This document shows, piece by piece, positions 17,301 through 39,133 of a stretch of DNA of 64,000 nucleotides. The translations under genes and the position numbers were made by a program. The stretch comes from Cenococcum geophilum (lineage: Eukaryota). Location of the stretch: NCBI GenBank assembly GCA_050273025.1, contig CP158635.1, positions 1,054,001 to 1,118,000 of the forward strand, in the 5' to 3' direction. Position 1 is the stretch's first letter. The number at the start of each line of letters is the position of its first letter. The notes below the pieces were generated by a model. That model was not told the DNA's origin and searched no databases. It saw only the letters and a program-made list of their open reading frames with translations.

Positions 17301-17822
17301 TTAAGCTACTAGCTCTACCTATTAAATAGACTAATTAGGAATTTCCATACCGGGTACATAAAATCGCTATTAACTCGGTAAAATATAGGGAAGTCTTAGC
17401 AAGCCAAATCTAACCAATTAGACAACTTTGACCGGCGGTTAAAGTTCCTTAACATCTTTACGCCGCGCAAGTGTACTACCTGTCTCTCTATACGCAAAAT
17501 TAGAACGCTCTTTCCCTTCCAATTTTTTCCTTCTAAAGGTTTTTATAGGGTTTTATTAAGGCCTAAGCATATAAAGGATCAGGGACGACCCTTTTTAAAG
17601 GGGGGGGCATTATTAGGTAAAACCTAAGTAGATAGCTATATAGCTGCGAGGTACAGGCGACCCGTAGGCGACTCGCCTATAAGGCACGTGCGCTGCACGT
17701 GCCTATAGAAACCCCTTACCTCGCACCTTAGACTCCTCCTTCTCCCTTAAGGATTCGTCTCTGTCTATACAATATACCTATTATTCTATTATTAGACTCC
17801 CTATCCACATCCTTACCTTATA
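14342..17822 (+). mobile_element. Non-autonomous gag-only LTR element (3481 bp; LTRs 14342-14553, 17611-17822)
   Basis: Paired 212-bp LTRs, TSD TTTAA (14337-14341, 17823-17827), PPT AAAGGGGGGGG. Decayed gag-like frame ~14600-15700 includes ORF 15443-15652. No RT, RNaseH or IN motif seen. Confidence 0.85.
15782..17232 (+). repeat. Internal tandem arrays of the gag-only element
   Basis: ~95-bp unit (GTCCGTAACCAGGGTCCTTTAACTAGGGTC...) x3 at 15782-16055 and x3 at 16713-16985; ~122-bp unit x2 at 17014-17232. Confidence 0.85.
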
Positions 17823-20643
17823 TTTAATAACCTAAAATATTATTTTATAACTACTTAATTTTTATTTACTTTAATCTAGACCTTAAATATATTATTAAAA
17901 TAAACTTATCTAATTATATACTAGGAGGAGTATTATTATAATATAATAAGAACGGTAAGCTACGCCTAGTAACCTTTCTCTTCTAAAAACTTACCCCTAC
18001 TAAATTAAACTATAAGATATATAATAAGGAACTACTTATAATTATTAAATGCTTTAAATAATAGCGCTTAGAACTTAAAGGATTGCTATTCCTAATATAC
18101 ATATTAATAAACTATAAAAACCTATAGTACTTTATAACTATAAAGTAATTAATAGAGCACTAAATTTGTTAGGCTGAATACCTTTTTTAATTTAATTTTA
18201 AGATTATATACTAACCTAGCAAACTTAATTAGAAGCCTGACTTATTAATATAATAATTATAGGACTTACCTATAAATGCCTCTAATAAACAGATTATAAA
18301 TTAATTGCGAATTCTACTACCCCCTAAACGCTTTAAGAAACTATGCCCTATATTTTTAAATATAAAGCTTAATAAAAATTAATTAGAAATTAATAAGTGG
18401 GATATAAAAATTAATAAATTAATAAATTAATAAAGTATAAATATAGGAATAACCTTTAAATAGTAGATATAATAAAAGCGATTTAAATAAAGAAACGGCA
18501 ATATAAGGATATTACACTCGCTAAATGCAAAATCCGCAATAATTAGTTATACTATTAATAAAAGATAGTAATCCCAAATTTTAAACCCTTATAATTTAAG
18601 ATATTTAAATTTATATACAATTCCCCTATAGTAGGGCATCCTAGCTATATAAAAACCTATAAGATTATTTAATAAGTATATTACTAGCCTATAATGTATA
18701 ACTATATATAAAAATACGTTTAAGTATATAGAATGTGCGTATATAGGAAAACCTCTTATATAAAGAAGTAAGGAGTACTTTAACCATTACTAATTCTAAT
18801 ATAAAAATAGCAAGATATCTTAATTAACTTTATAGTTAACCTGCCTAACAGTAATAGGTTTATAAATATTATAGTAGTTATTAACCATTTTATAAAAATA
18901 TAACATATAATTCCTATAGACTTAATTAATATAATATTAGTAGCTAAATATTTTATTAAGTATATCTTTAAGCTATATAGACTTCCTAATTTAATAATAT
19001 CTAACCGTAGAAGCTAGTTCATTTTAGACTTCTAGTAAGCCCTATATAAATAATTAAGTATATAAATATAACTCTTAACTGCATTTTTTCTAGAGATAGA
19101 CGGTTAAACTAAAATTGTAAACGTAATTATAGAATAATACCTATAAATATACTACTCCTATCTATAAGATAACTAGAAAAAGTAGCTACCTTTAGCTAAG
19201 ATTACTGTAAATAATATAAGAAATAAATTAATAGGCGTAACGCTGTTCTACGTAACCTATAAACAAAACCCTTAACTTAGATTTAAACTATAATCTAAAA
19301 TTAATATAATAGGACCTATAATTAAGAGGATTTAACTAATTAACGCGTATAACTTTACTAATTAAATAAAGTAGTTAACGGAACTATTATAAAGTAAATT
19401 AGCGTACGTTTAAATAGTATAAAAATAGTATATAAATAAAGAACAAGCTTCTATATAGGACTTTAAGGAAGGTAATATAGTTTACCTAAATATACGAAAC
19501 CTAAAGACCTAATAACCCTTAAAGAAATTAAACTAAAAGTTTACGGGCCTATATTAAATTAATAAGAAACTAAGCCTATACGCTTATAAGCTTAAACTAT
19601 TAACTAAGATAAAAATATATCTAATATTTTATATAAACTTGCTATAACCGTTAAAAGGTAAACCTTTAACTTATAAAGTGCTGCCGCTACCCCCTATAAT
19701 TGTTAATAACGGTAATAGTTTTTACTTTATTAACTTAATTAATAATATATAATAGAAAATATAATCTAAATAATTTAAACTTTTTATTAAGTAAAAATGA
19801 TATAAAATATAAACCTAGGAAACCTATAACTAGATTAAGGCCAACACGTCTTCCTTAGTAAAAGAATTCTATAAGGATTATTCTTTACGGCCTACTTTAG
19901 CTAGATGGATATAATATAAAAGTAAATAACTGCTACTTAATATAAATATATAAAATACAATAGTAGGAAGCTTAGAATTAAAAAGAATTTAAAATACGTT
20001 ATAATATTTAAAATACGATTATATAATATATAAGATATTAAAGAACTTTAACCGCTAGTTAAAGTTATCTAATTAGTTAGATCTGCCTTGCTAAGACCTA
20101 CTATAAAGATATTAGTTCTACTTACTGCCCTAATTAAGCTAATAGCGATTTTCTATACTGGGTATAGAAAATCCTAATTAGTCTATTTATAATTAGAACC
20201 GGTAAAACTCTATACCGCCACTTAACGCGAAAACATAATACGTAATAAGTTATAAGTCTTAACTAAAATTAAATTATTTAGACCTTTGGCTAAAAGGGGG
20301 GGGTACTATAATAGGACTAGCCTAGTTATAGTAGGAATGTCTTAGTAAAATAGTTGATAGATAAATTTTAACGCTTTAACTAAATTCTGCTAGATTAATT
20401 AAATTTTACTAAAGTTTATTAAAGACCGCGTGCGTATATACGCACGCATTAACCATTAAGCCCCTAACTATTTAATTATATAATTCTCTTGTTATTCCCT
20501 TCTCTTCTTTACGCAACGTCTTGTTCTTAGCGAGAGCTATATACCCTTAGATTTAGATAGAATTAATATTATTTCTTTAATCTTCCTTAAAGTCTCTCCG
20601 CGCCCTTATAGGGGAGGTTTTTTTTTAAATCTAGAAGGCTTTA

Positions 20644-21064: not shown

Positions 21065-21274
21065 ACTAAATATATTCCTTAGGAGTTGGGTCATGTATTT
21101 AAAGGACTATAGTTCCTACTTTAGTTAGTTCTTTCTTTATAGTAAATCTTAGAATATAATTAGAGTTAATTTATTAGGCACTTACTCTACTAGTTAGATC
21201 TTGTTATTACCTTTATCTATATACTTAGCATATTAATAAGTCTACCGTAATATCTACTATAAGGCTTTATTACA
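21065..21274 (+). mobile_element. Partial LTR of Gypsy family A
   Basis: Matches 46075-46283 (...TCTTAGAATATAATTAGAGTTAAT.TATTAGGCA...) and ends in ATTACA. Confidence 0.7.
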
Positions 21275-21941
21275 ATATAGCGGGTTTTCTATAAAGCTTT
21301 ATTTAAATTCTATACTATCTTAGTAAGTAATTAGCAAGTAAGTAGGCGTAATTTTAAGAGCAATAAGTAAGTAATTAGAGGGCTTCTAAATTAGGCAATT
21401 AAGTAAGTAGAGGGATGTTTTACTTACTAGTAAGTCTAGTTCGCGCTAGTAGAGGATACTAAGTCTTATTCTTTTTATAATAAAACTATTAGGTAATTGC
21501 TACCCAAGTATATACTAGAGTAGTAGTTTATATTTATAATAGCGCTAAATAAGCTACCCTTTTTAACTAAATCTATAATGCCTAAAGTCTGCCAATAGGC
21601 GCAGCTAGTATTGTATAGAAATACCTAAAACTAAAACTAAAACGCGGTTTTAGTTTAGTAGCCCCTTATATTAGTTTAATATTAAATGTTTTAATACGTT
21701 TTAGGTCTATATATAAGAATAAAAGGGTAGCTAGGAGTAACTAGTGCTAGGGTGCATTACCTGCTAAATTCTACCAACCCTAACTTCTACCAACTAATTA
21801 GGATTTTCCATTCCCGGGATAGAAAATCGCTATTAGCTCGCTGATTACTAGCGCCTTAGCGACCCTTTATATTTGCGTTAACCCCTAGCGGCCTTCCTCT
21901 TCTTTTTCTCTTTAGCTTAGTATCTTTATATAGTAGCAATC

Positions 21942-22290
21942 TATTACGGGATATCCCTGTAACACCTTATACACGTCTACTTATTTCTACTAACTTAGTA
22001 ACTAAAGACTAACTATAAGACGGCAATCTAATGGCAATCTACTACATTCTGCTATATTCCGCCAGGTTCTACTAAATCCTACTAAGTTCTACTAGGACTA
22101 CTACCTAAACCCTATTCTGCTCTATATATATATTAACTAAGTAACTAAGTAAATAATATATACCCTTTCTTCCTGTTTTCCTACCTTCTTTCCTTATATA
22201 ACGTCTTAATCTTATTATATAGTTTATATATATAGCTTAATAATATCTACCTTACTATATATTATCGCCGCTTATACTTACTTTGTAATA
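21942..22290 (+). mobile_element. Solo LTR (349 bp), RIPed
   Basis: TATTAC...GTAATA termini (RIPed TGTTAC...GTAACA), TSD CAATC/TAATC, TATA-like run followed by a pyrimidine tract. Confidence 0.7.
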
Positions 22291-22352
22291 TAATCTATAA
22301 GCTTTATCTTAAAGGCATTTATATAAGCCCGTTATAGGTTTCTAGGGTAATA

Positions 22353-22576
22353 TATTAGTAATTTAGTTAATTAAGGCATGGATATATTAAGAGAGACGCG
22401 TAAGCCTATATAATTAGATTATTTATAAATGAAGATCTAAAGCTAGAGAAAGGAAAGGAGAAGAATAGTAGCGCTGCTTAAAGTTATATGCGGTCCTTAA
22501 GTTACGTAAGCTTACGTAACCCTACGTCTACTATAGCATCTACTATAATCTACCGTTTTCTACTAGCGCTGTAACA
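22353..22576 (-). mobile_element. Solo LTR related to LTR 5237-5430
   Basis: Reverse complement aligns with 5237-5430; TSD TAATA/CAATA. Confidence 0.8.
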
Positions 22577-24696
22577 CAATAGGTTTAAACCGTGATAATT
22601 AACTTATTACTATTGCCTTACCCTCCTAATACCTTTAATGCCTTATCTATAAAGTAACTATTTGCGAATACGCCATTTAATAGTGCCCTATTTATTGCCT
22701 TTATAATTCAGACCTAGCCCCCTAATAACTCTACTATCTTTAATATCTTTACTTTAAGCCTTACTCTCTCTAGTATAATTATATATTTGGCTCCTGAGAA
22801 CACTTATTCTAGGCTAGCCAATATTAGGGGTATATTAAAGATAGCAATAGCTATTTAGGTAAGGTTAGGGTAAATTAATTATTATATAGGTTCTAACTAC
22901 TAGTTAAGAGGTAATTACACACTAATAGGGATTTGTGCGCCCTATAGATATTAGCTAGAGTAATAAGCGATTATTAGAGATATACCTTAATAAAGTTATT
23001 AAATTTATTAATAGTTGCTGTTAAAATAGTTATCTTAGCAAGAAAGCATGCGGCTGGATTTTTAATTAAGTTAAGATCTACTAATTATACGCTCTCTAGC
23101 TTAAAATAGTCCTTCTATAGGTTTTGGACCTTAGTAATGGTAGGCTTAATCCACTTCTGCTACTCCTTTATTAACTATACCTTCTTAAGACAGGCTTTAC
23201 GTAGTTAAGGGAAGAAGAGCTACTACTGCGTAAACGGGTATATTATTATTAAGCTTGTAGTACTTCTTAAACTTATACTAAGCTACTATTAACCTTACAG
23301 TTATTTAAGCGTTACCCCTAAATTTCTCCTATATTTAGGTAAAGTGGCGGATAAGGAATTCTATATTATTAAAGGTCGTATAAAGTATAGCAGTATACCC
23401 TTCCGTATTCTTTATACAGGCCTTAAAGGCTAAAGAACTTCTCTAATATCTTTAAGCTCTTGCTAATTGTCTCTTATAAGAGTATTATTACTAAGCTCCT
23501 ATTAGTAATCTTCTATCTAAAATATAATATCACAGTGCTGCAATAAAGTAGATTAAATAACTACGTTATAGTATAAAGAGGGGAAGAAGGTGGAAAGGGG
23601 GTATTATATATAAATAGTAGGGCCAGCCGCTAAGTCGCTAGTAGTAGGCTAGCTAATAGTAGGAAATAGTATAAGACAGTATAAAACAGTATACGTTAGG
23701 TTAGTGCCGTAATAGTACTCCTCTTCCCTAAATATTTTAGTCCCTAAATTAAATAAATAACTTAAAAATAGGCAGTATATAGGGTTGCCTATTTTTTACT
23801 ACAAAGATATTAGTTCTGCTTACCGCCCTTAATTAAGCTAATAGCGATTTTCTATGCCGGGCATAGAAAATTCTAATTAGTTAGTTTAGTAAGTAAGGTT
23901 AGTAGAACTTTATACCACTACCTAAATTAATCCACGTAGTATTTCTTAGTAAGAATTTAGCTAATTAGATAACTTTAACCGCCGGTTAAAGTTCTATAAT
24001 ATCTTAACCACCACAAATTTTAATATGGTGGTTAACCGCGACCTTAGCGTAACTTTTCCTTATCTTATACCTAGTCTAAAAGTCTTAGCTTCTTAGGGTA
24101 TTGCTTATAAAAGCACTATATAGCTTATTTATAACCCTTTAGGTCTTCCTCTAGCTGCTAGGTTATATCCTTATAATATTTTTATTTAATCTTATAAGTT
24201 AGGCCCTAGGGGTCTTTATTATATACATTAAGGATTTTTTTAAAACTCCTATTTGTCTCCTATATTGCCGTTATTATCTCTCTTTACTACTTATCCTTAT
24301 ATATTATAACACTCTATAGTATTAATATTTACTTAGCTAGAGATCTCTTTAGCAGCCTAGAGGCGGACCTTAAATATATAAAAGGATTTATTTACTTAAA
24401 TATGGTTTAGGAGGTTTATAATAACTACCCCTTAGTATACTATAAGTACGGGGTACAAGCCGTCCTATTTATTGTCCCATTTCTTCTTAGGTCTATTTAT
24501 CTTTATATTTTCTAAGCTAACTATAACTATATCACCTTTATAGAATAACGCGCTCTTATCCTTATAGGTATTAGTATTATCTTTATAGCGTTACTATAAA
24601 ATCCAGGCTAGGGCCTTAAGCTATATTAATATCCGCTTAAAGCGGTTGGCCATAAAGTCTACGCGGAAGAACTTTTTTTTTTACTTATACTAATAG

Positions 24697-27600
24697 TGTC
24701 GGGAATGAGGCAAGTTGCCGTCGCATGAAGCATATTGCCGTCACGTGTTGACGTGGCCCTAGCGTGGTGAGGAACCTTAAGTTCCTCACCCCTTTCCTTA
24801 TTCCTATTAAAAAGAATTAACCAACATCACTGTAACCCTACTCGAGTAGTCGTTATTGGTAAGTCACCCTATGTTTCCAACACTAATTAGTGGTTAAATA
24901 CATAGTTAACTACAGAGCAGCTAGGTTTTTAAATAGAAGAGACAGTCTCGTGCAGGGGTGCCATATGCGCTCATATGGAATGGATCCTGGCAATACTATA
25001 CTACCTTAAACTTGCGGAAAACTAGTAATAGAAGTGTCACTAAGTACTAGGAGATACTAAGTTGCGTCTATTATATAGAATAACCACGTTTACGAAGATT
25101 TGGTCGAGTACTTTAGGTTAGAAGTATTACTAAACCTACGGTCCCAAAATCAACGTCTAAAACGCGTTAAACAACTACGCATACAAAGATTTGGTCGAGT
25201 ACTTTAGGTTAGAAGTGTTACTAAACCTATAGTTCTAAAGTTAACGTCTAAAACGCGTTAACAACATCTTAATTGCCTACCTTTTGACAGCAAACCTACG
25301 AGATTCTATAAAGCCAAAAACCCTACCTACCTTTGATGTACGACACCCCGTCAATTTTATACCTACTATGGCATTAACCTACCTAAAGAAGTACGAGAAA
25401 AGCATTAACCCGGAGACGTGGGATATAGATATTAACCCTATAAACGCCGAGGAACAGGACCTAAACGGATTCTTAGTATACCGTATAGTATACTATATAG
25501 ATAGCGAATATAACGATACTAAGCTATGGTGTTGTATAAAGGAGGACTTTATTAGATAGATAAAGGAAATATAGGCTCTCGCGAAGAAGGACGTTATATA
25601 AAACTTCTATAACTTCCTTTAGGAGAATAGAGTATTTGTCCCTATAGATGGGGGTGCTATTAGAAATAATATCTAGGAGTAAGTTATTAACGTAAAAGAA
25701 GAGCACGAATGGACTCTATAAGAGGTTAAGCACCAACTATATACTAAGAGGAAGCTTAACTTATAATAGAATCCAAATAATATACTAATAGAGACGCGCT
25801 CTAATTCTATTGCTCCAGGTATAAGTTCTTATATTCCGTATTTATTACTTCTACCTCTATCTCTAGCTCCCTAGGATCCACTAATTTAACTAGTAACGTT
25901 AACTACTACCCCTTAAGAGCAAGCGCAAGATCCCCTTGCTTCGCGATTTAATAACCTTTAAACTCTACTATAGGAAGATTAGGTACTACGCCGTGTTCCA
26001 CTAAGCCCTATATCTCCACTGCAGCCTATAAAGTAATCCCTACTTTAATCTCTAATGCAATTTTAACGTGGTTTAACACTACTTAGAGGCACCTTAAAAA
26101 TGCTTATAGAGCTTACGAAGCTCTATATGGACTAGGAGAAGAAGTTTAGCAGGAAACTATATAATATCCTTAATTCGAAGCTGTGTATCTTCTACGACTG
26201 TTGTTAGAAGGTTAGACTAGAACCTAACTAATATTATAATGCCTATTCCGTTATGCTTAAGGGCCGCGCTAGTACCTTCTATTATAATTATTTGGCAGAA
26301 AAAGGATATAATTTTAACCGAATAATATATAAGATAAGATACCACTTTAAAATAAAAGAGAATAAGTAGCAATATATGTTAGAGTAGAGAGAGACTACCT
26401 TTCTAAAAATCATTGCTACGAACCCAGGTGTCTCTTAGCTTAATTATCTTTAAAAGCTCTTTAATTAACTTTAGATAATTTAGCGTGGTTTATCTAAATT
26501 ATATTAAGAGGACCTTAGCCTATGTGATTAAGTTATTAGCGTATACTGAGGTATTAAAGAATATAATCTTGCTCTCTTTAACCCTATAAGTACTTATAAA
26601 GGAGTATATACTTAATTAAGATCCTCTATTAGCACCGCTCTACGCTCTTAAGAAGTATAGCAATTTAACGCCCAACTCTAACCTACCTTAATCAACCCGG
26701 TTAACCAATATAATTATAACTGGACTAATTAAACATATAGTGGATGTGGTAGGGGATACGGTAAAGGGTATAATTAACGTTAACTATAAGGCAATTATAG
26801 AGGTCCTTATGGAGGTTCACTTTGGAGCGATTATTAGAAGAAGTGCTACGTTTATAAGAAGCCAAATTACTAGTTAACTAGACACCCTTTTAATAGACAA
26901 AAGGAGGCATATAATAGGTTTCGCCAGAGTATACAAAATATCGGAAACTAAGAGGTTACTATAGCCTACTTTTAAAACTTCCTGGTTTAATATAAAGGCG
27001 AAGAAGATCTTAAGGGTGAGGTTAACGAGGCTAAACAGCTCCTTATGGATATAGAAATTAAGGACTACTCTCCCAACTAATACTTCACCAAGTATAGTGA
27101 GGTAAATGGTATATAAACCGTCGCTATCCTTAATAACTAATCTACGCTCCATTCTATTATAAAGTTAGATATCTTTAATAAGCTAAAGGAAAGTTCCGCG
27201 TTCTCCTTTAACGATAGATACTCGGCAAACGTCTTCTATAGCATTATGCCAGATACTAGAGCCGCAGGAGTATCTATAGCAGGAGAGCCTTAAGTTTGAG
27301 CTCTTTAGTAGCTTAATAGCTCTATTTAGATTAACTAATTAACAGTAAGCTAATATACAATTCGCTTTAGCAAGGGTACTATAATCTCTCTTAGCATAAT
27401 TAAGGTCCAAACCCCGTTAGGATATATTACTTTCCATATTATCCCTATAAATACCCCGTTTCTATTCTACATCTAAGATATAGATAAATTAGGTATTAAG
27501 CTTAACAACCTTAAGAATATACTTGTCCAGGGAGATAATTAGGTGCCCGTTATACGCAAGTAGGGTCACCCTTAGTTACTCCTTTAATAGCCAGAAAGGA

Positions 27601-30600
27601 GCGTTGCTTAAAGCCACCTAACCGAGTTAGAGTTACGTTAACTACACCGTCGTTTTAGCTACCTATCTATTTACCAATTGCTTAGGGTCCTTTAGCAAGT
27701 AGGTTATAAAGTCGAGGTTAAGGTAATTAAATATCTTATAAAGTACTGCCACTACTACCAAATAAACTAGAAGTCCCCTAGCCGATTTAAGTTTACTCTT
27801 AAAGACGACTACAACTTTAACTTCTGTATTATTATAGATGTTATATATCTTAGCGGCAAGCTAGTACTCTAAGTTGTTGACTTCTTAACCTCCTTTTAAG
27901 CCGCACGCTTTTTAAAAGATATGTTAGCTAGGAACGCATAGGATACTCTTTAATTATGCTAGATTAATATCTACCTAGGACCCCCTAATTAAATCGTTTA
28001 TAATATAGAAAAGAACTTCTTATCTACGGAGTTTTGATAATAGGTAAAGGCAATAACAATTAAGGTTAAGGAAGTCCCCGTTAAGGTATATAATAGTATT
28101 AGAAAAGTAGAACAATATTATACGCTATTACGCCACGCATATAAGATTATTTCTTCGGAACTAGAGGGTGCTAGTAAAGAGCTTATCCTATAGATGGCTG
28201 TTAAGGCTATTAACGATACCGCTGGCCTAGATGGGCTCGTACCTACGTTACTAGTCTTTAGCGCCTACCCTTAAATAACTAACAATTCTCCACTATCTCC
28301 CTCTATTGCGTAATAAGCTGAGGCTATTCGCAAGGCAATAAAGGAGGTATAACATCTCTACGCCACGCGCTAGGTTAATAACGTACTAGGAATAAGAAAT
28401 AGCCTAAACACCTTAACTACGCTTAATCTACCACTCTAATCAGAGGTACGCGTATAGCGTAAAAAGGGAGGATAGTTAGGCCTATATAAACTTATTGTAA
28501 TTAATGGTTAAACTTATACTCTTTAGATGCCCTATAGACCTACTTAATTCCGCTTAACCGTTATTAAGCCCTACTATAGGGATAATAGCTCTAAGCCTTT
28601 ATAGGATACCCCAGAGGATACCCTAGAGGAGAACTATAATTAACGTGCTCTAGAAGGCGAAGGCGATTCTAATATAATTATAGTAGATATACCGCAACTA
28701 TAACGCGGTAGAGGTCGCCCAAAGGGATTACAAAATTGCCAACATTTTGTTAATTTCAAAGAGCAATTTATTACCGCTATTAAGAATAGAGATAAACTAT
28801 TAATGGCCTTTATAACAGCTAAAGAGAAGGCTAACTTCGAACTCGTAAAATAGCTCTAAAAGGAAGGCCGCATTATAACTTTAGGAGCTCCTTTCCAAGC
28901 ATCTAATAAGCAGGAGATTAACGGTCTCATTACAAAAGGAGTCTTTAAATTTAAGAAATACAACCCTACTAAGTTCAATGGAATCCGTATATTTAAGTTA
29001 AGAATAGTTAATAAGATTAAAGGCAAAGCTACTAATACCCCATTTAAGAAGTTAAGGCTAGTTATTTAAGGTTATAATAATAACGGTAAGGAAGTAATCC
29101 TTATATAATCCCCTATAATTTAATAAGCTAGTCAATGAGTTATTATTACGCTAGCTCCCTCCTTAATAAAGAATGGGATGGCGGTTTACCTATAAGATAT
29201 TACTTAGGCCTACACCTAATTAGAGACGCGCCTTTAGCGCTTAATACTAGTATACCTTCTAGAGCAAATTCGCTACTAATATCCCAAGGATACGATTATA
29301 GTCGTACTTAAGCCATTATATAGAATCGCAGAGGTAGGAACTTATTGGTGGGCTACCTACAGCAAGCACCATAAGGAGAAGCTTTTGATGACTACTTCCA
29401 CATTTAATCCCTGCTTCCTTATTACAACTACGGGAACTCTATTTAGAATCGTCGGTATATAAACAGATAATATAATTATCTTAGAAGACGACCAATTCTT
29501 AGCTCTTAAAGAAGATAAGCTAGTAAAGGCAAACCTTATAGCAAAGCTAAAGGAAAGACTTAACTTAGCAACACTATTACTCTTTAATGGATATATCCTC
29601 TCCCTAAATAAGGGCTCTATTGCTCTACGCCAAAAGGGTCAAGGTAAGAAGATTAACGTTATTAACGTTAATTCTTTAAAGCAAGGATATGTGGAGCAAC
29701 GCGCTCGCGAAGCTTATATGGCTTCTATTTGTTAACCTAAGGCTTCCTTTAATCTCTCTATTGCCGCTTAATACTAGAAACCAACTAAAAATAACATTCT
29801 TGCCCTAAATAAGCGTCTTTTCTAGCAAATAAACCATCTTAATAGGGGACTACTTTACGTACCTATTAACCTTCCTACCGCTAAGCTCTTTATATTTATT
29901 AATAGATCGTTTATAAATAATAAAGATTTTAGCTCCTAGCTAGAATATAAGATTATTATCGCGAATAAATCTACCGGAGAGAATAACTTTATAATTTACG
30001 GCAACCTTATCTATTAGAGCTTAACTAAGAGTAAGCGCGTTACTTAAAGCGTTCTAGCGTCAGAGATATATAAAATAGTCGGCGGAGTTAATATAGCAAT
30101 TACAATTAGAACTACCCTTAAGATAATTACAGACCGGCTTAAACTTCCCACTATCCCTATAATTATATACACCAACTTATATTCCCTCTATAAGTATTTA
30201 GTTAAGCTTAGTACTATAAAGGAGAAGCGTCTTATAATTAATATTATAGTACTTTAGCAGTCCTATAAGCGTTAAGAACTCTTTAAGATCTAATGGATTA
30301 ATGGCTAAGATAACCTAGTAGATGCGATAACGAAGGTAAACCTAAATAAGGCACTAGAGACGTTTATTAATATAAATACTCTATATATATAAGTTAAAGG
30401 TTGGGTTAAAAGGGAAATTTAGAGAAGTTAAAATCTTATAAAACTTTAACCGCCGGTTAAAGTTGTTTAATTGGTCAGATCCTTGCCAAGAGCGCCACGC
30501 CTAATTAATTTAGGTGGTGGTGTAGACTTCTGCCAACCAATTAGGATTTTCCATGCCCGGCATGGAAAATCGCCATTAGCTTGCTTACTACTAGCGTCTT

Positions 30601-30957
30601 AGCGGCCCACCCATCTTTGCGTTATCCACTAAATTCTACCAACTGCCGCATTATTATATATCGTCTGGTTTTGTTATATATTATCTAGTTTTATTATATA
30701 TTATCTGGTATTATTATATACTGTCTGTTTATATATATATATATAGCAACTATAAAAAGAAGAGTTGCTAGTGTCGGGAATAAGGCAAGTTGCCGTTATA
30801 TAAAGCATATTGCCGTCACGTGTCGACGTGGCCCTAGCGTGGTGAGGAACCTTAAGTTCCTCACCCCTTTCCTCATTCCTATCAAAAAGAATTAACCAAC
30901 ATTACTGTAACCCTACTCGAGTAGTCGTTATTAGTAAGTCACCCTATGTTTCCAACA
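24697..30957 (+). mobile_element. Full-length RIPed Ty1/Copia element, probably GalEa-like (6261 bp; LTRs 24697-24882, 30772-30957)
   Basis: Paired 186-bp TG...CA LTRs, TSD AATAG. Domain order gag, protease (DTGAAGVS ~27252), IN (HRRFGH ~27645), RT (YGIAEAGTHWWATY ~29319; QTDD ~29460), RNaseH (CTDSYSLY ~30167). Junction motif CTAATTAGT replaces a tRNA PBS. Confidence 0.93.
30442..30582. promoter_or_regulatory. Best-preserved copy of a double-palindrome/CCAAT module shared by several TE families
   Basis: AACTTTAACCG-C-CGGTTAAAGTT (30442-30464) and GATTTTCCATGCC-C-GGCATGGAAAATC (30545-30571), each next to CCAAT/ATTGG. A regulatory role is inferred only. Confidence 0.5.
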
Positions 30958-33900
30958 AATAGTATTAATAAGTAAAGACTAGTAGGCTTAATTCTAAGGT
31001 AAGGGTTAAAGCTATAGTTTATAAAAAACGGGAAGATACCTATACTTTTATTAACTTAGTTATTTATAGCAAACTTAGTAAGCGGTAGGTAGTTAACCTA
31101 GTTGTCCTATATAAAGCTAACAAAAGTATAAAGGTATTTATTTACGGCAGTGTTAATAATTTAGCCGTCTATTTCTAGGTACTAAGCTAAGCTTAGTTAT
31201 AAGGTTATCTTAAAGCGTTTACTTAGTTATTACTAAAAGTCGCTAATAAATTATATACTGCGATTAGAGATAATTATGCTTGGTATACTATAGAGCTTAT
31301 ATATATTATTAATAAAGCTATTAACTAGCTCCTTTGTTAAGAGTTCTATTACTAAAATAAGGTATTATATTTTAGTTAGGCGGTCTATAATAATAAGGAT
31401 ATATTTATATACCTTACTATAGCGTTAGTATACCAGCAGCATTATAATATAGTTAATTAAGATATTAGTCCACGGGTAGGCGGGTAATTTTAATAGCTTT
31501 AAAAAACCAGGCGGGGTAAAATAGGGGGTCTTAGTATAAAAGTATAGGGTATAGTCTTTAACAAAGGTAGCTATAAACTAGGAGATTCCTAGCTACCAGT
31601 ATATTTAGTTTAAGAGGTTAAGGGTTTTAACCTAGCTAGGGTAACTAGCAGGGCCGCTACTATAAAAGTAATAGGTAACTTCTAGGCGGAGGTCTAGGGC
31701 GTTAGGGATAAAAAGATATTAGCAAAAGTAGATCTATTTATTAATAATACTGCATTCTAACTTATTATAATAAAGTAATTTCCTAATCTTCTTTAGCTAA
31801 CGGCGAGCTTTCTAATTATATAGGGCTGCCACTATATCTCTTACGAGTTTGCTCTTCTAGTATCCTAGCTAAATTAACTTATCTAGTAACTTTTTAGCTA
31901 TTTTAGGGTCTAAAGTAGCTATAAACTTTACGTTATTAGAGTTACGGGACTTATATAGTAATTCTTTTAAAATTATAGGGTTAACTTTCTAGGGCGGTAT
32001 AATAACTTAGGCTTAATAGCGAAGGCGTTTATTATTAGCGTCCTTAGGCCTTATTCCTAGTAGCCAGCTTAGGGCGTTAGGGAGTATAGCTTTACTACTA
32101 GGTCTATATATAATTATAAAGTTAAACTATAAAAGGAACTCTGCCTACCAGACTTAGTACTAGTTTAGCTGCTTAGTAGTTATAAATGTCTATAGATTTT
32201 TATAGTTGGTAATAATTTTAAACGGCTCCTTAGTCCCTTATAGCTTAGGACGCTATTCCTTTAAAACCTTAATAATAGCTAAGAGTTCTTTATTATAGAT
32301 CTTATAGTTATATTTTAGTATAGAGTGCTTTATAAAGAAGAATATAACTAGTTTTAATTTTCCGTTATTATTATACTGGGAAAGGACTCCGCTAAAAGCC
32401 TAATTTAATATATCTATCTCGACTACTATTTTCTTTATATAGTTATAATATACTAATACTAGTGCTAAAGTAAAGGCTCCCTTAAGGGCCTTAAACAATT
32501 TAGCTTATTTTAGTCCCTATAGCCATCTAATATCCTTCTTTAGGAGTTTTGTTATAGGTATAGCAATAGTAAAGTAGCCTTAGATAAATTATTAGTAGAA
32601 GTTCGCAAAGCCAAGAAATTATTATAGTTCTTTAATTAATGTTAGGTCCTTTTATTTTTATAAGGCCTATACCTTCTTAGGGTTTATAGTTATACTATTA
32701 GTTAAAATAATTAAGCTAAGGTATTTTATTTTAGTAGAGTAGAACTTAGACTTATTAATATTAATCTAAAGTCTAGTATTACCAAGTCTTTAGATGACTT
32801 TATTTATATACTTAGTGTACTTAGCACATGTTTTAGAAAAGATAAGGATATTATTAAGGTAGGCAGTATAGTAGTTGTTAAGGGCGTTATATAGAATATA
32901 GTTAATATAGTTTTAGAATATAGCGGGTACGTTATAGAGGCTAAATAATATAACTAGTATTTTATAGAGTCTAAACCAGGTAATAAATGCTATAAGCTAC
33001 TTATAGCCCTCCGCAATCTAAATCTAGTTAAACACAGTAATTATATTAAGTTTAGTAAAGTACTTAGTACTATAGAGTGCGTTAAGTATCTTACGGATTA
33101 GTAGCAGTGGGTATCAATTCTTAATAGTAACTATGTTTAGGCCTTAGTAGTTATAGTAGATTTATATACCGCTACTAGGCTTAGTAGCGAGGAGGAGTAA
33201 TATAGCAGCTAGTAAGGTCGATTTGCGGATAAAACCCTTATCCAGCATCTTATTAATCCACTTCTTTACACACCTAAGTTTAGTAGGTAAGAGTAGTCTA
33301 TTTTTATAGTATAGGGCCTAGTTTCTAGGGGTAATCTTAATTTTATAGTCTTATAGTTAGTAAGGGGGCAGCTTATCTATATTTTTAGGGAGGAAGTGCT
33401 TAATATATTTACTAAACTCCTTTAGTAGGCGTTATAGAATATTTTTACGGGTTAATCCTGGTTTACCTTTTAGGAATTTTTTAATATTAGTGTTGACTAT
33501 CTTCTAATATAAAGGCTTAGGTTTAGTTTTTAAATTTATTTTAAGGTAGTTATAGAAATAGGGGGAGAGTACTTTATAGGCTTCCTTTATTATATAGTCG
33601 CCTTCTACTAGCTAGTAGAAAGACCTTTCTAATAGGTTTAGTACTTCTATTAGGCCTATAGGTAGCTCTTTAAGCAGCTATCGGTACTTATCTTATTTAA
33701 CTAGTTCTACTAGCTCCGCTATATAGATCCTTATTACCTTTATATCTTTTTATTTATAGAACTAGGTAAAATTAATAGTATAAGTATATTTAATATTATC
33801 TAGGTTAAGGCGTATCTGGTTCTCCGGTGCTATAGCTAAGCTAGTATAACTTAGTTAGCCTAGGGGGGCAGAAATAAGGCAGTAGCCCTATATAGTACGC

Positions 33901-36900
33901 GTGGGAGATAGATATAAAGTTAGGCGTTACGGTAGCGCGGTTTCTATTATCTATGTCTTAGTAGTTTTATAGCCAGTCCTTACTATAACGCGAGCTATAG
34001 TATATATATATAGTATATAGCTTAATTCCAGGTATTGGGCTAGGCGGCTAGGGTTTAAATAGTACTTAGGTTAAGGTTAGATTCTTAATAGTAGCGGCGT
34101 AAAGCGGACTTTCTTTCTTAGTCTTGGCAGGGCTAGCTAGCCTATTATTTTAGTCTTAAGTGCTAGGGTAGTCTAGTCTTCTACTATCTTGTTTCTTTAC
34201 AGCTATATAGGCTCTCCTTTATTAGGAACGTTTTTTACTATTAGGCTTTATATATAGTTTTAGGCACTAGGCTTAGTAGTGCTAAGTATTTATATAGGGC
34301 GTCTCTATTAATATTGGTTATCCCCTACAAGAGGTAGTGCCTAGAGTAGTAGTCTAAGTTAAAGCGGATTTTAAGTTTCCTAAAGCTAGGATAGGGCTTA
34401 TGCTTTTAAAGCTAGGGTATACCTAGAATAATTAGGGTAATAGGTAAGAGTTTAGTAATAAAAAAGAGTATAGCTTTAGTATGGAGGCCGATTAATATTT
34501 AGGCGGTAAAGTAGTCCGTAATAAGCGAAGTTAGAATGCTATCTATAAGGCATAGTAGCCTAGATACTAACAGCTTCTTAGTTATAATATTATACTTTCT
34601 TATAATAAACTCTATATTAATAAATGCTATTATAGTACTACCGGAGTCTACTAGGCTTACTATATTAATATAAACTTAGGGGTATAGGTTATATAGTAAG
34701 GAGAGTTAGGTTTAAATAAGGATTAATTTCTTATTACTATTTGCTAATTTAAGATTAAGTGGTAGTTTACTAATAGAAAGGACTAATTAATTTAGTAATA
34801 AGGACCTAATCTTCTTATCTTTCTCCTTATATAGTTTAAATCCTTAGACGTAACTTAGTCTAAGGGTTTACTTTTTAATAACTAAGGTATAAGGCTATCT
34901 TAGTAGGGCGGTCCAGTGTCCGTCTAGCTAGCGGTATTAGTTTTAGTTTTAGTTAGGGTATAGGAAGATAATACCTTACTAATAACGTGGCCGTGTTTAT
35001 ATTCGCTAGCGCGAGGTTACTAATACTAGGCGTTATTAATAGGTTAGGCTCCTATATAGGGTATAGTTTAGAATAACTAAGCCGTAGGGTTAAAGGAAAA
35101 GGGTTATTTACTACAGCTATAATAGGCTTCGCGGTCGCCGCGTCTATAATAAACTCTATAATTGCCACGTTTGCGGTTATTAGTTCGCGTTATTTAACGG
35201 AGTAGTATTAGGACTAGGTTTACTATCTTAGCGGGGTTATAGATATCCTTTTAGTGGCTAGGTAGGCTATAGGTAAGATATAGTCTATTATTAATATAGC
35301 GCTTATACTTTATATCTAAGATTTTATTAAGGTCTATAGGTTCTCTAGTTACTACTAGGGTTAGGATTAATATAGGGGTAGGGGCTTAGGTAGGTAGGCG
35401 GTAGTTAGCGTTTTTTTAAGGTTGGCTTAGTATATATAGTTTATAAGGTTTTTAGCAAATATATCTATCTACTTACTCTAACCTATATAGTTACTGTTAT
35501 TAATTTTATAAGTAAGTCTAAGTACTAGCTCTTCCATCTTTAGAGAGATAAACTTTTAGAGTAGGTCTACCTTCTATTTATCTATCTTCTTAGCGCGGAC
35601 TATTAGCTTATTAAGCTCTCCCTTTTAGGACTAGTAATTATACTCGCCTTAAGGGAAATAGTTAAGCTTATTCTTTATAACCTGGGTTATATTAAGGACC
35701 TTATAGTAGGTAGTAAGGTCTTTAAGCATATCTTCCTTAGTAGGCCATTTCTATATAGATGTGTTGTTTAGGTTCTTATATATAAGCTTTAAGCCCTACT
35801 TAATAAACTTATAGGCCTCGTCCTTTAGTATATTTAAGATATAAAGGATTTAGGACTAAACTATATTAAAGTAATTCTAGTCCTAGTTAAAGACTCCCTT
35901 AATCTTAATATACTAGGTCTTAAAATTAGCTTATTATTTTAGTAGGGTGCCTTTTCCGCTAAATATTAGCGGGTCTTTAGATCTCTATTTTTTCTGCTAG
36001 GTTACTACTATTATTATAGGGGTTAATTATTTTAGGACGGTAATAGTCTTTACCTAAGAGTTAATAGTTCCTATCTAAAAAGCGATAAGGGCACTAAGGT
36101 TTTCATTAGCTTTCTTATTAGCGGTGTTTATATTATATATATACTATAATCCTACTTTAATATTATTAAGAAACTCGTTAGTATAGTTAATAAGGGTAAG
36201 GTAAGCTTTGCTAGGCTTAAAGGTCTTAGGGTATAGTAGGGAGCGGCGGATTATCTATACAATATTAGGGTATATCTCTATAAAGAGATCTACAAAAATA
36301 TTGCAGGGGTTTTAGGTTTCGGCTATTTTGGCGTTATTAGTATCGCCTATTTAGGCGCTAGGTAAAAACTAAGGATTATTTTAGGACTGTGCTAGGGACG
36401 TATTAGTTTTAGTAGAGGCGCGCGTAGGTCGCGATTACTCTAGGGCAGAGGTTAATTAGCTAGGGTATAAGGAATTAATAATCGCGATAGGGCGTAAATT
36501 AAAGATACTATAAACTGTTACAGTGCTATAATAAAGTAGACTAAATAACTACGTTATAGTATAAAGAGGGGAAGAAGGTAGAAAGGGGGTATTGTATATA
36601 AATAGTAGGGCCGGCTGCTAAGTCGCTAGTAGTAGGCTAGCTAACAGTATAAAACAGTATAAGACAGTATAAAACAGTATATATTAGGTCAGTGCCGTAA
36701 TATATAAATTCCTTACGCTTCTATAAAGTAATAGTAACCTTATCTAACTAGGAGTTCTACTACGCATTACTATCTATAGGAATTACTTAGCTAACTGCTA
36801 TAAGGAAGGCTTAAAATCGATAGGAAGAAGAGTAAAAAAAGATTTTATAGTTATAGAGTTTACTAAGGCTTCCATAGTTATAAAACTCTTTAGTAATATC

Positions 36901-39133
36901 TTCTTTACTTTGTAATCCTTAATATTAAAGCTTATCTTAGAGTTAAGCAATATCCTAAATAGCCCTCTTAATTACCTTATCCTTATCTTTTTGTCCTTCT
37001 CCTTACTTTACTATAGATCTAAAAAGGAAGGCTTAGGCGATATAATTAAGATTATAGCTAAAGTAACGTACTTAATAAAAGACTGGGTTAATGTTCTTAA
37101 TCTCCTCTATAATATAGCGTAGCATAAGGTTGTTTAAGCCATAATTATCTAATAGAAAGAAGCCGAGTTTATCTTATAAACTAGCCTCTTTTATAACCTA
37201 AAGAAAGGCCTTTACCTATTCCTTACCACCATAAGCTCCCTTAAATTCTTTAAGTAATAATAAGGCAGTCTCTATATAGCGAGTCTCTGTATCTACCTAA
37301 TATACTACAATTACCTAGAATCTTGTCTTTGCTAGTAATATCCATATATTAATTAAAAAGTGTACTAGGAAGAGGGAGTTTTTAAGCCTTTTAATAAGCT
37401 CTTCGCGGTAGAGGATATAGGTTAATTTAATAAGCTTTAGGACGTCTTATCGCGCGAATTTAAGAGTCTCTTTAGCCCTATAGTTGACTAATAGAATAAC
37501 AACCCAAAATTTAGGCTAATTAAGTAGTAAGTAAGGAAGGTTTTAGACGGTAATAAGTTGTACATAAGCTTCTTTAAATTTGGGTACTTTAATAGCTACT
37601 TAAAGGGTCTTTTCTTTAATTAGGTTCCGCTTCTCTTGTAAAGTTATTTACTTGCTAAAGACGTCTATAATTATATTATTAAAATCTCTCTTTATTAGAC
37701 CTAGAGGCGTAAAACTAATGCGTGTACTATAGGATTTAAGAAGGTATATACAGAATCTTTTAGCATTTAGAGAGCCCTTATAGCTAGTGCAATACTTACA
37801 ATAATATATCTGCTGGTAATGCTTATTCCTTACCTTTTTAGAACCCTTTACTTTACGAGTATAAGACCATAGCTCCTTATTTACCTTTAGCTTATTTTAG
37901 CAGGGGATTTCGTTGCTATTAGTAGTACTAGCTTAGGATACTAGGTAGGAGCTATCATCTTTATCTTATGTATACTCCGTAAAGTCTAAAACTGTAGAGG
38001 TATTGTCTTAAGAAGCTATATAGAGGTAGAAGGTTAGTATAACGGTGCTAGGGTATGCCTCCTGCCAAATTCTGCCAAATTCTGCCATACCCTACTATTG
38101 GCTCGCTTACCACTAGCGCCTTAGCGTTCCTCTTGGGATATTTATATACACTAGAACCCCCTTTCTTCTTCTTTTTCTCCTTAGCTTAGTATTTTCGTAA
38201 TATAGCAGTTAGAGAAGGGAAAACCTTAAACGTATAAAACGGTTTAAAACATCTTAAACTAAACAAGGTTTAGTTTTATATAAACCCGTATAGCTGAAGC
38301 GTTTTAAATATACTAAAACCGGTACGTTTCTATACATCCCTAGGCGCAGCCGCCTGTAGTAGCTGTTTGTCGACCTAAATCGGAGTTCCTTACTACTATT
38401 ATAATACTGTCTGACGACCTAGATCGTCTATATAAACTTTATCTTAGTTGTCTCTTAACTTATAACTAAATGTCTTATTAAATATCTTATTACCTAGTTT
38501 CTATTACCTATTTTAACTTAGTTGTCTAGACCTACCTAATATATATAAAGAGCTTCTAGAGCCCTCTTTAATAGACAGAGTTCTTATTCCTAATCGTCCG
38601 TTTAACACTGTTGCTTTAACTAAACTAGATATAATAGTAAACCTAAATAGGTATATTAAGGGTACGGAGTGGAGCAGGGTTAGGCTAATATAAGCAATAG
38701 TTTTATTTAATTTTCTTGCAATTAGTTAGTCTTCCTGCTTTAAATTACTCCACTTTATATATAGGTTATTATTATTTAGCAAGGAAACAAGTTTATTACT
38801 AAAGAATGCTATAAGAAGGGAACAGCGGTTAAATACTAGAGGATAGTGGTAAATAAATTGGGGCATTAATAAATAGGGTTGTTAAAAGCTTGGGTAAGAT
38901 GGATAAAACAATCCTTTTTGGTCGAACTCGGCCCAGAGGCCGATCAACCCATAATTTATAGCATCCTAGGTCGCTGAGCCCTGAAACAGGAGAAATTCCG
39001 ACTGATGTCGCACGTAGTCAAGCCATTGAGTCAAACGATAGTCAATATATTAGGCTGAAAAGCGCTCGAAAATATTAAAAGCCCAGATTCAGTCCACAGT
39101 TCCTCACTAAAACTCAATCTTGTTACGTCCCCA

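Follow-up and report, generated by a model that had tools for sequence, protein, structure and literature searches.

Two palindromic sequence blocks recur at the 3' ends of LTR retrotransposons in the window, which is the whole 64,000-nucleotide stretch of Cenococcum geophilum DNA analysed here. They occur in four diverged Tf2-like Ty3/Gypsy families, in one family of Ty1/Copia, and in a non-autonomous LTR element, and most likely represent a control cassette that belongs to one Gypsy group and was copied by recombination into other elements. Block 1 comprises about 68 bp, consists of the 23-bp palindrome motif 1 and an inverted CCAAT box, and has the same boundaries across families. Block 2 consists of the 27-bp palindrome motif 2 between two inverted CCAAT boxes and lies in the middle of a ~120-bp imperfect inverted repeat. 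The palindrome centres read CCG-N-CGG and CC-N-GG, respectively, with the triplets everted and not in the order CGG...CCG. Each motif is present once per element. Our statements on the genome cover the window, 128 metagenome loci, and the read mapping of one sequencing run; the loci were collected with the motif-1 search pattern, so that this sample is biased towards motif-1 neighbourhoods.

A RIP-degenerate 23-mer served as search pattern for motif 1. It recovered all five sites that an earlier note on this DNA had named (window matches at 5137, 17424, 20044, 23971, and 30442), with no match in 100 shuffles. For motif 2, four of the five copies claimed in that note were found with up to two mismatches (20147, 21802, 23846, and 30545; none in the shuffles), while the fifth at 17339-17365 is more degenerate and needs three substitutions. 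The window and the metagenome loci together contain at least 137 distinct copies of motif 1 and at least 96 distinct instances of motif 2, every one of them RIP-mutated. Among the matches listed, motif 2 lies 70-131 bp downstream of motif 1 in 82 of the 137 motif-1 copies. The palindromes do have CCAAT boxes beside them, and the proposed de-RIPed form CCAATCAG or its complement can be read directly in the less mutated copies L062, L071, and L109, where the CCAAT pentamer has the preferred 3' neighbours of the consensus. We take CCAATCAG to fit the consensus of the CCAAT-binding complex, i.e. to be a candidate HapB/C/E site. A TTGACC form of motif 1 occurs in a few copies only (17424 in the window, L054, L062, and L116). 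The viral contigs scanned gave no match to motif 1; their five motif-2 matches were rejected as AT-rich chance palindromes lacking CCAAT flanks or the CCNGG core. Read depth in RNA run X21 (~12% of the run) was near zero over both modules, which says little about active copies, because all copies here are RIP-mutated.

Host elements and the conserved block 1

Three window elements had been assigned to Gypsy and one to Copia, in agreement with the domains and homologs that we found. The Gypsy assignment follows the domain order RT-RH-IN-SH3_Tf2-1; between Gypsy families, RT-RH identity amounts to only 33-53%, as measured on RIPed read-throughs. Gypsy1 (plus strand) contains RVT_1, RNase H, Integrase_H2C2, and SH3_Tf2-1 and ends with a PPT at 5222-5233 and an LTR starting at ~5234; its block 1 lies at 5123..5191 (plus strand), and motif 2 is absent. 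Gypsy2 (plus strand; LTRs 11176-11478 and 20309-20610, PPT 20292-20303) shows RNase H, Integrase_H2C2, and SH3_Tf2-1, with block 1 at 20031..20103 on the same strand. Gypsy3 (LTRs 23532-23714 and 36520-36702, PPT 23729-23718) has its RVT_1 and RNase H domains on the minus strand, where its block 1 is also found (23937..24008). The blocks of these three elements were recognised by motif match and pairwise homology.

The Copia element (plus strand; LTRs 24694-24882 and 30769-30957, PPT 30754-30764) is nested within Gypsy3. Because a Pfam search of its RIPed pol gave no match, its Ty1/Copia class was settled by homolog search: homologs of the 1017-aa pol read-through carry PF07727, PF00665, and PF13976, and RVT_2-bearing homologs confirm the class. 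Block 1 occupies 30427..30491 of its 3'UTR (plus strand), with motif 1 at 30442-30464 and the inverted CCAAT box. The remaining host is a non-autonomous LTR element, recognised by its LTRs (14342-14558 and 17611-17827, plus strand) and PPT. Neither a Pfam match nor a pol domain was found in it, and its former label 'gag-only' could therefore not be confirmed. Its block 1 (17391..17461, minus strand) is inverted relative to the element; the inversion of the whole module had already been noticed and is borne out by the PPT at 17597-17607 and the 3' LTR on the plus strand. Sorted by upstream flank, the motif-1 hosts among the matches listed are Gypsy2 (35), C1 (31), Gypsy3 (24), the non-autonomous element (17), Copia (10), Gypsy1/5b (9), and singletons (11).

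As the earlier note had stated, the five retroelements of the window all carry motif 1 after the end of pol (or of the internal region) and before the PPT. Motif 1 precedes the PPT by 85-312 bp in every case, and block 1 is absent from every LTR seen. Pairwise homologies start ~13-16 bp before motif 1 and end ~50 bp after its first position; conservation reaches ~29 nt beyond the hairpin of motif 1 and only ~16 nt upstream of it. Identity to the consensus is 72-93% for block 1, whereas the 60-bp flanks reach 13-53% (mostly ~25%) and are at chance level. Likewise, transversions plus gaps amount to 0.018 and 0.035 in block 1 outside the search pattern, compared to 0.058-0.217 in the flanks. Block 1 was also counted in 3' ends that had been found independently of the motif. 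Among the matches listed, it is kept in 119 of 127 such ends (Gypsy2 29/31, C1 31/31, Gypsy3 22/22, the non-autonomous element 17/17, Copia 11/15, and Gypsy1 9/11), and its orientation is the same in five of the six families.

The optional motif-2 cassette and its transfer

The cassette with motif 2 at its core is optional: within single families, it can be present, absent, inverted, or placed elsewhere. In the Copia 3'UTR, the motif-2 unit spans 30526..30631 (plus strand) and is 83% identical to 21783-21887; its palindrome (30545-30571) is enclosed by two inverted CCAAT boxes. The motif-2 segment of Gypsy3 lies at 23797..23925 (minus strand; palindrome 23846-23872) and that of Gypsy2 at 20095..20225 (plus strand; palindrome 20147-20173), while the non-autonomous element contains a Gypsy2-type segment at 17323..17390 (minus strand) with the degenerate palindrome at 17339-17365. 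The segments of Gypsy2 and the non-autonomous element are inverted relative to those of Gypsy3 and Copia; the earlier note had described motif 2 as inverted relative to motif 1 in two copies. The collinearity of the Copia and Gypsy3 copies was recovered as well, at 71% over 175 bp (23835-24008 vs. 30582-30427) instead of the ~140 bp first given. The Gypsy2 segment is a discrete indel of ~121-125 bp: 19 of the 35 copies listed are filled, 14 are empty, and two are centrally deleted. The same skips of 121 bp (joint 20094->20216) and 289 bp were also seen within single contigs from an independent run. Among the C1 copies listed, 18 lack motif 2 and 10 carry it at one site; three further copies have an inverted Gypsy2-type segment at a second site, together with Gypsy2 flank bases.

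In one LTR type, motif 2 is located in U3 upstream of a TATA-like box; elsewhere it lies in the 3'UTR. An LTR-like fragment of the window (21741..21945, plus strand; motif 2 at 21802-21828) is homologous over ~200 bp to the post-PPT LTR starts of family 5b and to the Gypsy1 LTR. Its relatives L024, L025, L059, and L062 start like the 5b post-PPT LTRs, and in all of them motif 2 is found ~60 bp from the start and upstream of a TATATAG stretch. A second LTR-like fragment at 38045..38215 (plus strand) is a direct repeat of 21741-21945 with a left-arm-like stretch and one ATTGG box only; together with L098, it represents a sister LTR type without the palindrome. The U3 regions of Gypsy1, 5b, and Gypsy2 contain TTCTGCC repeats and other dyads, and the motif-2 arm resembles the TTCTGCCA repeats typical of these U3 regions.

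Comparison of the individual copies shows that the blocks evidently reached the Copia family and the non-autonomous element secondarily and that recombination reshuffles them within the Gypsy families. Most Copia copies among the matches listed contain a tract identical to the Gypsy1 3'UTR end, which is followed by a Gypsy-type PPT plus LTR-start-like sequence and then by the motif-2 unit; the junctions are located at GGGAG purine runs. The Copia copy in the window has a Gypsy3-type block 1 instead of this tract, and four Copia copies among the matches listed are without block 1. In the non-autonomous element, ~160 bp of Gypsy2 3'UTR are present in inverted orientation. These observations fit the exchanged non-coding module of the earlier note: it is discrete, has a strong positional bias, is common to superfamilies of LTR retrotransposons, and is exchanged in part between elements. 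The transfer could have occurred by nested insertion plus deletion, by gene conversion, or by template switching of reverse transcriptase.

Possible functions of the blocks

We tentatively favour the view that each palindrome forms the core of a conserved non-coding block at the 3' end (3'UTR-PPT-U3) of a Tf2-like Gypsy clade and that these blocks would act on DNA as a U3-type cassette. In the genome of this RIP-active ascomycete, block 1 is the part kept constant across four diverged Gypsy families with fixed boundaries and orientation, and block 2 is an optional cassette able to sit on either side of the PPT, its arm apparently being a copy of the U3 TTCTGCCA repeats. Working as a U3-type enhancer or UAS cassette, the blocks would be bound by host factors, presumably as dimers on the dyads and beside the CCAAT-binding complex, and a recipient element gaining the cassette might proliferate better. 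If so, the blocks would identify regulators that control a large share of the genome's repeats. A regulatory role at the DNA level had already been put forward in the earlier note and is still the leading reading, with the U3 position of motif 2 upstream of a TATA-like box and its TTCTGCCA-like arm pointing to such a putative function. The note had further reasoned that DNA dyads account for the free orientation better than RNA hairpins do; this was not supported, because the RNA of a perfect palindrome has the same hairpin either way, and a strong RNA fold is predicted as well. Furthermore, block 1 is badly placed as an upstream enhancer of the element's own promoter, because 3'UTR sequence does not end up in the 5' LTR.

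Alternatively, the palindromes may form hairpins at the genomic RNA's 3' end, or in the single-stranded cDNA made from it, and serve as signals for packaging, dimerisation, or reverse transcription, which we regard as possible but rather unlikely. Shared palindromes would then let the RNAs of different families pair, be co-packaged, and switch templates beside the hairpins, and the non-autonomous and Copia elements could use Gypsy particles. The blocks always lie in the part that is transcribed only at the 3' end, and both positions of block 2 are contained in the RNA; that block 2 occurs both before and after the PPT is easiest to explain if the relevant feature is the 3' end of the genomic RNA. 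The inversions are likewise accounted for by a hairpin that is the same from either orientation of a perfect palindrome, and recombination junctions are concentrated directly beside the blocks. For the module stretch, an RNA fold of -58.1 kcal/mol (z -5.26) is predicted, in which the CCAAT flanks pair with each other and so close off three hairpins. Position 11, the sole variable position of the motif-2 arm, covaries: of the 96 instances listed, 58 are of the C:G type, 37 of the G:C type, and one is different, with neither CC nor GG among them (RIP derivatives counted). This paired change would speak for base pairing over protein contact, but the compensatory support comes from one position, and hairpin-templated repair could give the same pattern. 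Moreover, the sequence of motif 1 is identical across families that are otherwise diverged beyond recognition, whereas a structure-only signal could vary, and functional RNA hairpins do not usually combine stems of 11-13 bp with loops as small as 1-3 nt. An Rfam search with the window and four less mutated loci gave no match to a curated family.

According to the cited part of PMC11381356, Ty3 PAL6, Ty1 PAL1/PAL2, and the HIV-1 DIS are palindromes in genomic RNA as well, palindromes drive dimerisation, and Ty3 needs part of its 3'UTR in cis. The same part describes the dimerisation palindromes of Ty3, Ty1, and retroviruses as short (6 nt) and located in hairpin loops at the 5' end, whereas the palindromes studied here comprise the whole 23-27 nt and lie in the 3'UTR or U3. 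In place of a palindrome within a 5'-leader hairpin loop, we found hairpins that are palindromic as a whole, with a 3-nt loop. If the blocks do act as RNA signals, they would reveal a way in which unrelated elements come to share particles and to recombine. It seems improbable that they are a 'common-currency' signal by which the RNAs of the Gypsy, Copia, and non-autonomous families pair, share particles, and switch templates; if this were true, a selfish cis-element would be moving horizontally between transposon superfamilies within one genome.

We also give a rather low probability to blocks without any function. The 3'UTR and U3 would then tolerate foreign 3'-end fragments that spread with successful masters, the palindromes would stem from snap-back copying and be recombination hot spots, and the similarity would reflect recent exchange. 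Structural variation is high just downstream of block 1, with values of 0.18-0.22 for transversions plus gaps, numerous indels, and palindromes deleted in their centre. The Gypsy PPT and LTR start in the Copia 3'UTR are what a truncated nested insertion predicts, and the left-arm-like stretch alone in the sister LTR 38045-38215 is consistent with motif 2 having arisen through an inverted duplication. Block-less variants exist in Gypsy1, Gypsy2, and Copia, and the 3'UTRs of plant LTR retrotransposons are reported to be hypervariable in the part of the literature drawn on here. But recent pairwise exchange predicts variable tracts, whereas an identical 68-bp tract with identical boundaries is found in four Gypsy families. 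Loss of block 1 from only eight of the 127 independently found 3' ends listed, its single orientation in all families but one, and the block-bearing majority of every family among the matches listed argue in the same direction. Nevertheless, the conservation of block 1 could partly mirror recent exchange and not selection.

Mobile-element readings and comparison with known systems

Transposition of the blocks on their own is not indicated, and a hAT element as their carrier is not supported, as judged from the copies compared. We consider it very improbable that motif 2 or the module is a tiny MITE- or foldback-type element preferring transposon tails. Such elements are likewise small, built from inverted repeats, and polymorphic for presence and absence; the ~121-125 bp unit is present or absent in Gypsy2 (19 filled vs. 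14 clean empty sites among the copies listed), is found at two different sites and in either orientation in C1, and is itself an imperfect inverted repeat. However, the flanking repeats vary (ACC in Gypsy2, TAAG in C1 V70, none in C1 V125), no terminal inverted repeat common to the events was recognised, and the ends of the segment differ between them. No stand-alone copy was seen among the 137 motif-1 and 96 motif-2 contexts listed, a sample biased towards motif 1. The C1 insert includes Gypsy2 flank bases, with boundaries varying by event. Such donor-flank bases in inserted tracts argue for recombination rather than for a targeting element, and no consistent TSD or TIR was found, which leaves the tiny TE-targeting element considered in the earlier note without support. 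In MITEs and foldback elements, by comparison, termini and TSDs are uniform, stand-alone copies occur, and donor flanks are not co-transferred. CACTA-type ends were rejected for the motif-2 segment, as its right end does not mirror the left, and so was a Helitron 3' end (hairpin 10-12 nt before CTRR), since conservation continues ~29 nt past the hairpin and the block is internal to LTR elements.

The earlier note had also placed motif 2 in the subterminal region of a hAT element (21793-21860) and suggested that class I and class II elements might exchange the cassette; this version is now highly doubtful. A hAT-family transposase remnant does adjoin both LTR-like fragments (22977..38019, minus strand; split by the nest of Gypsy3 and Copia into 38019->36688 and 23513->22977), and 38045-38215 ends 26 bp upstream of the hAT start codon. 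A RIP-tolerant search of 20611-22700 against 38020-39140 found no pair of TIRs with 8-bp TSDs; with the termini of the remnant not located, 21741-21945 could still belong to this hAT element. However, the two fragments repeat directly, whereas hAT subterminal repeats would lie inside short TIRs with the ends inverted. The fragments are homologous to 5b post-PPT LTR starts and the Gypsy1 LTR, and the motif-2 unit also occurs in the 3'UTRs of Copia and C1 and beside Gypsy2 pieces without a hAT nearby. The supposed hAT copy therefore lies within an LTR-like fragment, and the exchange between classes lost its support. For nested RIP-mutated repeats, this is a caution: a motif 'in a hAT' was actually in an LTR fragment. 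PF27041 is listed with the evidence for the hAT remnant under a name taken from Atlas, and a PDB search with the hAT-region homolog P0121 gave no match. A solo LTR at 38045-38215, around which the 5-bp repeat GTTAG is found, was rejected, as the fragment stops before the point where related LTRs go on. In L059, the LTR-like unit forms a 234-bp inverted pair; a DNA transposon was rejected here, because the pair flanks pieces of Gypsy2 and a search for a transposase gave none.

In the LTR retrotransposons of fungi, conserved non-coding signals have hardly been studied, and the present case supplies a sharply bounded 68-bp block that is intact in four diverged Gypsy families and a palindromic cassette that was repeatedly copied, the Copia family included. 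Our full-text literature search found no fungal description of such blocks among the papers listed, and only to this extent the statement of the earlier note that none was known can be upheld; the palindromic boxes of plant Sireviruses appear to be the closest precedent. As far as the cited part of Bousios et al. (2010; PMC2829016) goes, these plant Ty1/Copia elements have palindromic repeated motifs (RM boxes) with a CGG-CCG core, which are situated in the LTRs ahead of the TATA box as well as in the linker that precedes the 3' LTR and are accompanied by multiple PPT copies. Both systems share dyad motifs with a CGG/CCG-type core that are conserved between otherwise diverged elements, their location both in U3, ahead of a TATA box, and in the linker that joins pol to the 3' LTR, additional PPT-like tracts upstream of the 3' LTR, and a proposed regulatory role that is putative in both. 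By the same part of that paper (PMC2829016), Sireviruses have 8-32 short boxes clustered in LTRs of plant Copia hosts, whereas here one copy each of the 23- and 27-bp palindromes is found in fungal Gypsy families, one fungal Copia family, and a non-autonomous element. Furthermore, the palindromes described here are flanked by CCAAT, and the same sequence is found across superfamilies, shuffled as a cassette.

Recombinant LTR retrotransposons arising by template switching or inter-element recombination have been described (Sabot & Schulman 2007, PMC1950507; Sharma & Presting 2014, PMC4079200). In the cited parts of these papers, LTRs and UTRs are likewise mosaics of families, and non-autonomous elements share non-coding parts with autonomous partners. 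Compared to the cases given there, the tract described here differs in that a Gypsy 3'UTR-PPT-LTR start lies inside the 3'UTR of a Copia element that keeps its own PPT and LTRs, and in that the palindromes are at the centre of the exchanged tracts.

Recurrence of the two palindromes in a transposon nest

The window is an AT-rich transposon nest (GC ~0.23-0.36 except for one gene island) with a transition bias of repeat-induced point mutation (RIP) across it; contigs of independent runs carry G/C at A/T positions of the window roughly twice as frequently as A/T at its G/C positions. Its elements were delimited by self-comparison. Gypsy1 is represented by its 3' part alone, ending at ~5430. Gypsy2 (LTRs 11176-11478 and 20309-20610) contains a nested 3.5-kb non-autonomous LTR element (LTRs 14342-14558 and 17611-17827), and Gypsy3, on the minus strand (LTRs 23532-23714 and 36520-36702), hosts a nested Copia element (LTRs 24694-24882 and 30769-30957). 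Tandem repeats were found in the Copia 3'UTR (~30-bp units, 30650-30745) and inside the non-autonomous element (~90-bp units, 15782-17239), as likewise described for 3'UTRs of plant LTR retrotransposons. A 439-bp stretch at 8224-8662 forms a large palindrome, matching its own reverse complement at 77% over 455 columns. An intact 560-aa ORF of membrane-protein look (39134-40816, minus strand) occupies a GC-richer island (GC 0.43-0.49); it is free of RIP mutation, with mutated transposons on either side.

The earlier note had reported two recurring palindromes, and this observation is real: the 23-bp motif 1 occurs five times and the 27-bp motif 2 four times in the window, compared to none in 100 shuffles. 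The orientations and collinearities it described were borne out by the window self-comparison. A fifth, more degenerate motif 2 is located at 17339 in the non-autonomous element. It is so degenerate because of private changes at 17341, 17357, and 17373, where almost every contig from two independent runs has another base. We subsequently scanned metagenome contigs with motif 1 and its right flank, which yielded at least 128 loci, sampled through motif 1. These contain the TE families of the window at 80-89% identity to it and are RIP-mutated too (GC 0.27-0.47), as is every copy seen in window and loci. Together, they provide at least 137 distinct copies of motif 1 and, overall, at least 96 distinct instances of motif 2; among the matches listed, motif 2 follows 70-131 bp downstream of motif 1 in 82 of the 137 copies.

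Clustering of the motif-1 copies by upstream flank resulted in six host families and 11 singletons among the matches listed. Gypsy1, Gypsy2, Gypsy3, and a further family, C1, have the domain order RT - RNase H - integrase - SH3_Tf2-1 and are therefore Ty3/Gypsy elements; their RT-RH read-throughs are just 33-53% identical. The previous Copia call was right, the best homologs of the 1017-aa pol read-through carrying RVT_2, rve, and gag_pre-integrase domains. The element previously termed gag-only indeed lacks a detectable pol, but its gag identity has no backing, without any Pfam match, and we refer to it as non-autonomous. Taken as a whole, the module is real, sharply defined, recurrent, and non-coding. 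Conserved dyad motifs in non-coding regions of LTR retrotransposons are already known as a kind; what is unusual here is a module shared and shuffled among families and superfamilies. We found no fungal description of such a module in the portions of the literature searched.

A constant block 1 and a movable block 2

Motif 1 is the core of block 1 (~68 bp). In every pairwise comparison of families, homology sets in 13-16 bp before motif 1 and stops ~50 bp after its start, and within these limits the sequence is constant across families save for RIP-type transitions and the central base. The right part of the block contains an inverted CCAAT box, CTGATTGG in less mutated copies. Consensus identity amounts to 72-93% in block 1 versus ~25% in the adjoining 60 bp. 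Since the search pattern bars transversions at 33 of the 68 positions, scoring was limited to the remaining positions of the block, where the frequency of transversions and gaps was 0.018 and 0.035; it was 0.058-0.217 in the flanks. When 3' ends were located by their coding-side flank instead of the motif, block 1 was present in 119 of 127 (29/31, 31/31, 22/22, 17/17, 11/15, and 9/11 per family). In the window, it is positioned 85-312 bp upstream of the polypurine tract (PPT). Its orientation is sense in five families and inverted in the non-autonomous element only. In the consensuses of Gypsy2, C1, and Gypsy1/Copia, block 1 is preceded at 20-40 bp by additional perfect dyads, short and with ACGT at their core; such dyads were also seen in the Gypsy1 U3. 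Runs of three to five TTCTGCC repeats mark the U3 starts (LTR starts of Gypsy1, Gypsy2, and 5b, a family grouped with Gypsy1).

Block 2 consists of motif 2 flanked by two inverted CCAAT boxes; an imperfect inverted repeat of ~120 bp is centred on motif 2. The block is optional and movable. Of 35 Gypsy2 copies, 19 contain it, 14 are clean empty sites, and two have central deletions. Single contigs of an independent run showed the same 121-bp skip in Gypsy2 and one of 289 bp spanning the entire module, with the limit that contig joints at this likeness may be spurious. Eighteen C1 copies are devoid of block 2, ten have an LTR-type unit at one site, and three carry an inverted Gypsy2-type segment at a different site. 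This inverted insert includes Gypsy2 flank bases and was therefore copied from a filled Gypsy2 3'UTR. In one LTR type (21741-21945 and metagenome loci L025 and L059), motif 2 lies ~60 bp into U3, and a TATATAG stretch follows downstream of it; in the sister type (38045-38215 and locus L098), all that is present is a stretch similar to the left arm, together with a single ATTGG box. The motif-2 arm is similar to the TTCTGCCA repeats filling these U3 regions. In locus L059, moreover, the LTR-like motif-2 unit is present as two 234-bp copies (3584-3817 and 6850-7083; 90%) inverted relative to each other. They abut the two halves of a Gypsy2 3' end, themselves oppositely oriented, and the arrangement resembles the outcome of an inversion between the two unit copies.

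Transfer between elements and the supposed hAT carrier

Most Copia copies contain, directly after the purine run ending pol, a tract identical to the end of the Gypsy1 3'UTR including block 1, followed by a Gypsy-type PPT, LTR-start-like sequence, a motif-2 unit, and the Copia PPT and LTR. In some copies this Gypsy1 tract is missing and GGGAG runs mark the junctions, and some have the motif-2 unit only; the window copy has a Gypsy3-type block 1 in place of the Gypsy1 type. The non-autonomous element carries ~160 bp of Gypsy2 3'UTR, reversed. These extended tracts are pair-specific, in contrast to the fixed 68 bp common to the four Gypsy families. From these sequence relationships, we interpret block 1 as ancient and under constraint in the Gypsy clade, and the remaining cases as recent copying. 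No uniform TSD or TIR was found at the insert junctions of the Gypsy2 and C1 copies, pointing to recombination as the mechanism, which could have proceeded by nested insertion plus deletion, gene conversion, or template switching of reverse transcriptase at purine runs.

A hAT element had also been proposed as a class II carrier. A hAT-family transposase is indeed encoded on the minus strand: the homolog P0121 maps from its residue 1 at 38019 to 36688 and again at 23513-23332, with the gene remnant reaching 22977. The hAT gene is therefore split by the Gypsy3 nest; with Copia inside Gypsy3, this makes three nesting levels. The family mark is PF27041 (ZBED1_RNase-like / hAT-like, name from Atlas), and Dimer_Tnp_hAT matches weakly at ~22740-22870. 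The motif 2 in question, at 21802, is part of 21741-21945, a direct repeat of 38045-38215. Both repeats start like the LTRs after the PPT in family 5b (L083, L098, L104, L110, and L120) and continue like the Gypsy1 LTR. The LTR-like motif-2 unit is also found without a neighbouring hAT, namely in the 3'UTRs of Copia and C1 and next to Gypsy2 pieces. On this evidence, a class II carrier is unsupported. Neither hAT termini around the remnant nor a second copy of this family among the sequences searched were found. A second, distant hAT-like remnant (9598-10626, plus strand) is ~24% identical to the homologs P0121 and P0128 and has a similar counterpart in locus L054 (6734-7549).

Possible function of the blocks

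We tentatively favour, with somewhat less than even confidence, that the blocks act on DNA as a regulatory cassette. Dyads combined with CCAAT boxes would fit such a role, as would the placement of motif 2 in the U3 of one LTR type, the match of its arm to the U3 repeat, and the extra ACGT-core dyads before block 1 in three families. The layout resembles that of plant Sireviruses, for which the part of the source consulted describes palindromic boxes in U3 and linker and several PPT copies (PMC2829016). Alternatively, the palindromes might provide a hairpin signal in RNA or cDNA, a rather unlikely reading. It is favoured by a strong predicted RNA fold and by the sole variable arm position of motif 2, which changes jointly on both arms; block 1 was never found in an LTR, block 2 occurs on either side of the PPT, and a palindrome is indifferent to orientation. 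The requirement of Ty3 for part of its 3'UTR in cis, according to the section seen of PMC11381356, also counts for a hairpin. That the blocks are functionless, neutral debris is unlikely; the structural instability of the region and the occurrence of block-free variants speak for it. A self-mobile element, the tiny mobile element of the earlier note, finds no support at junctions without uniform TSD or TIR and is highly improbable, and so is an exchange between class I and class II.

In a single RNA sequencing run (X21), almost no reads covered the modules, which has little bearing on active copies, as the copies here are RIP-mutated. The sole clear signal of the stretch examined in this run (depth 23.5/53) came from an 80-bp repeat, 90% identical between 20593-20723 and 4410-4489, which adjoins the Gypsy2 3' LTR on the outside. 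Thirty-four molecules start at 20662 within it, and their reads continue into unlike sequence, indicating an expressed relative elsewhere.
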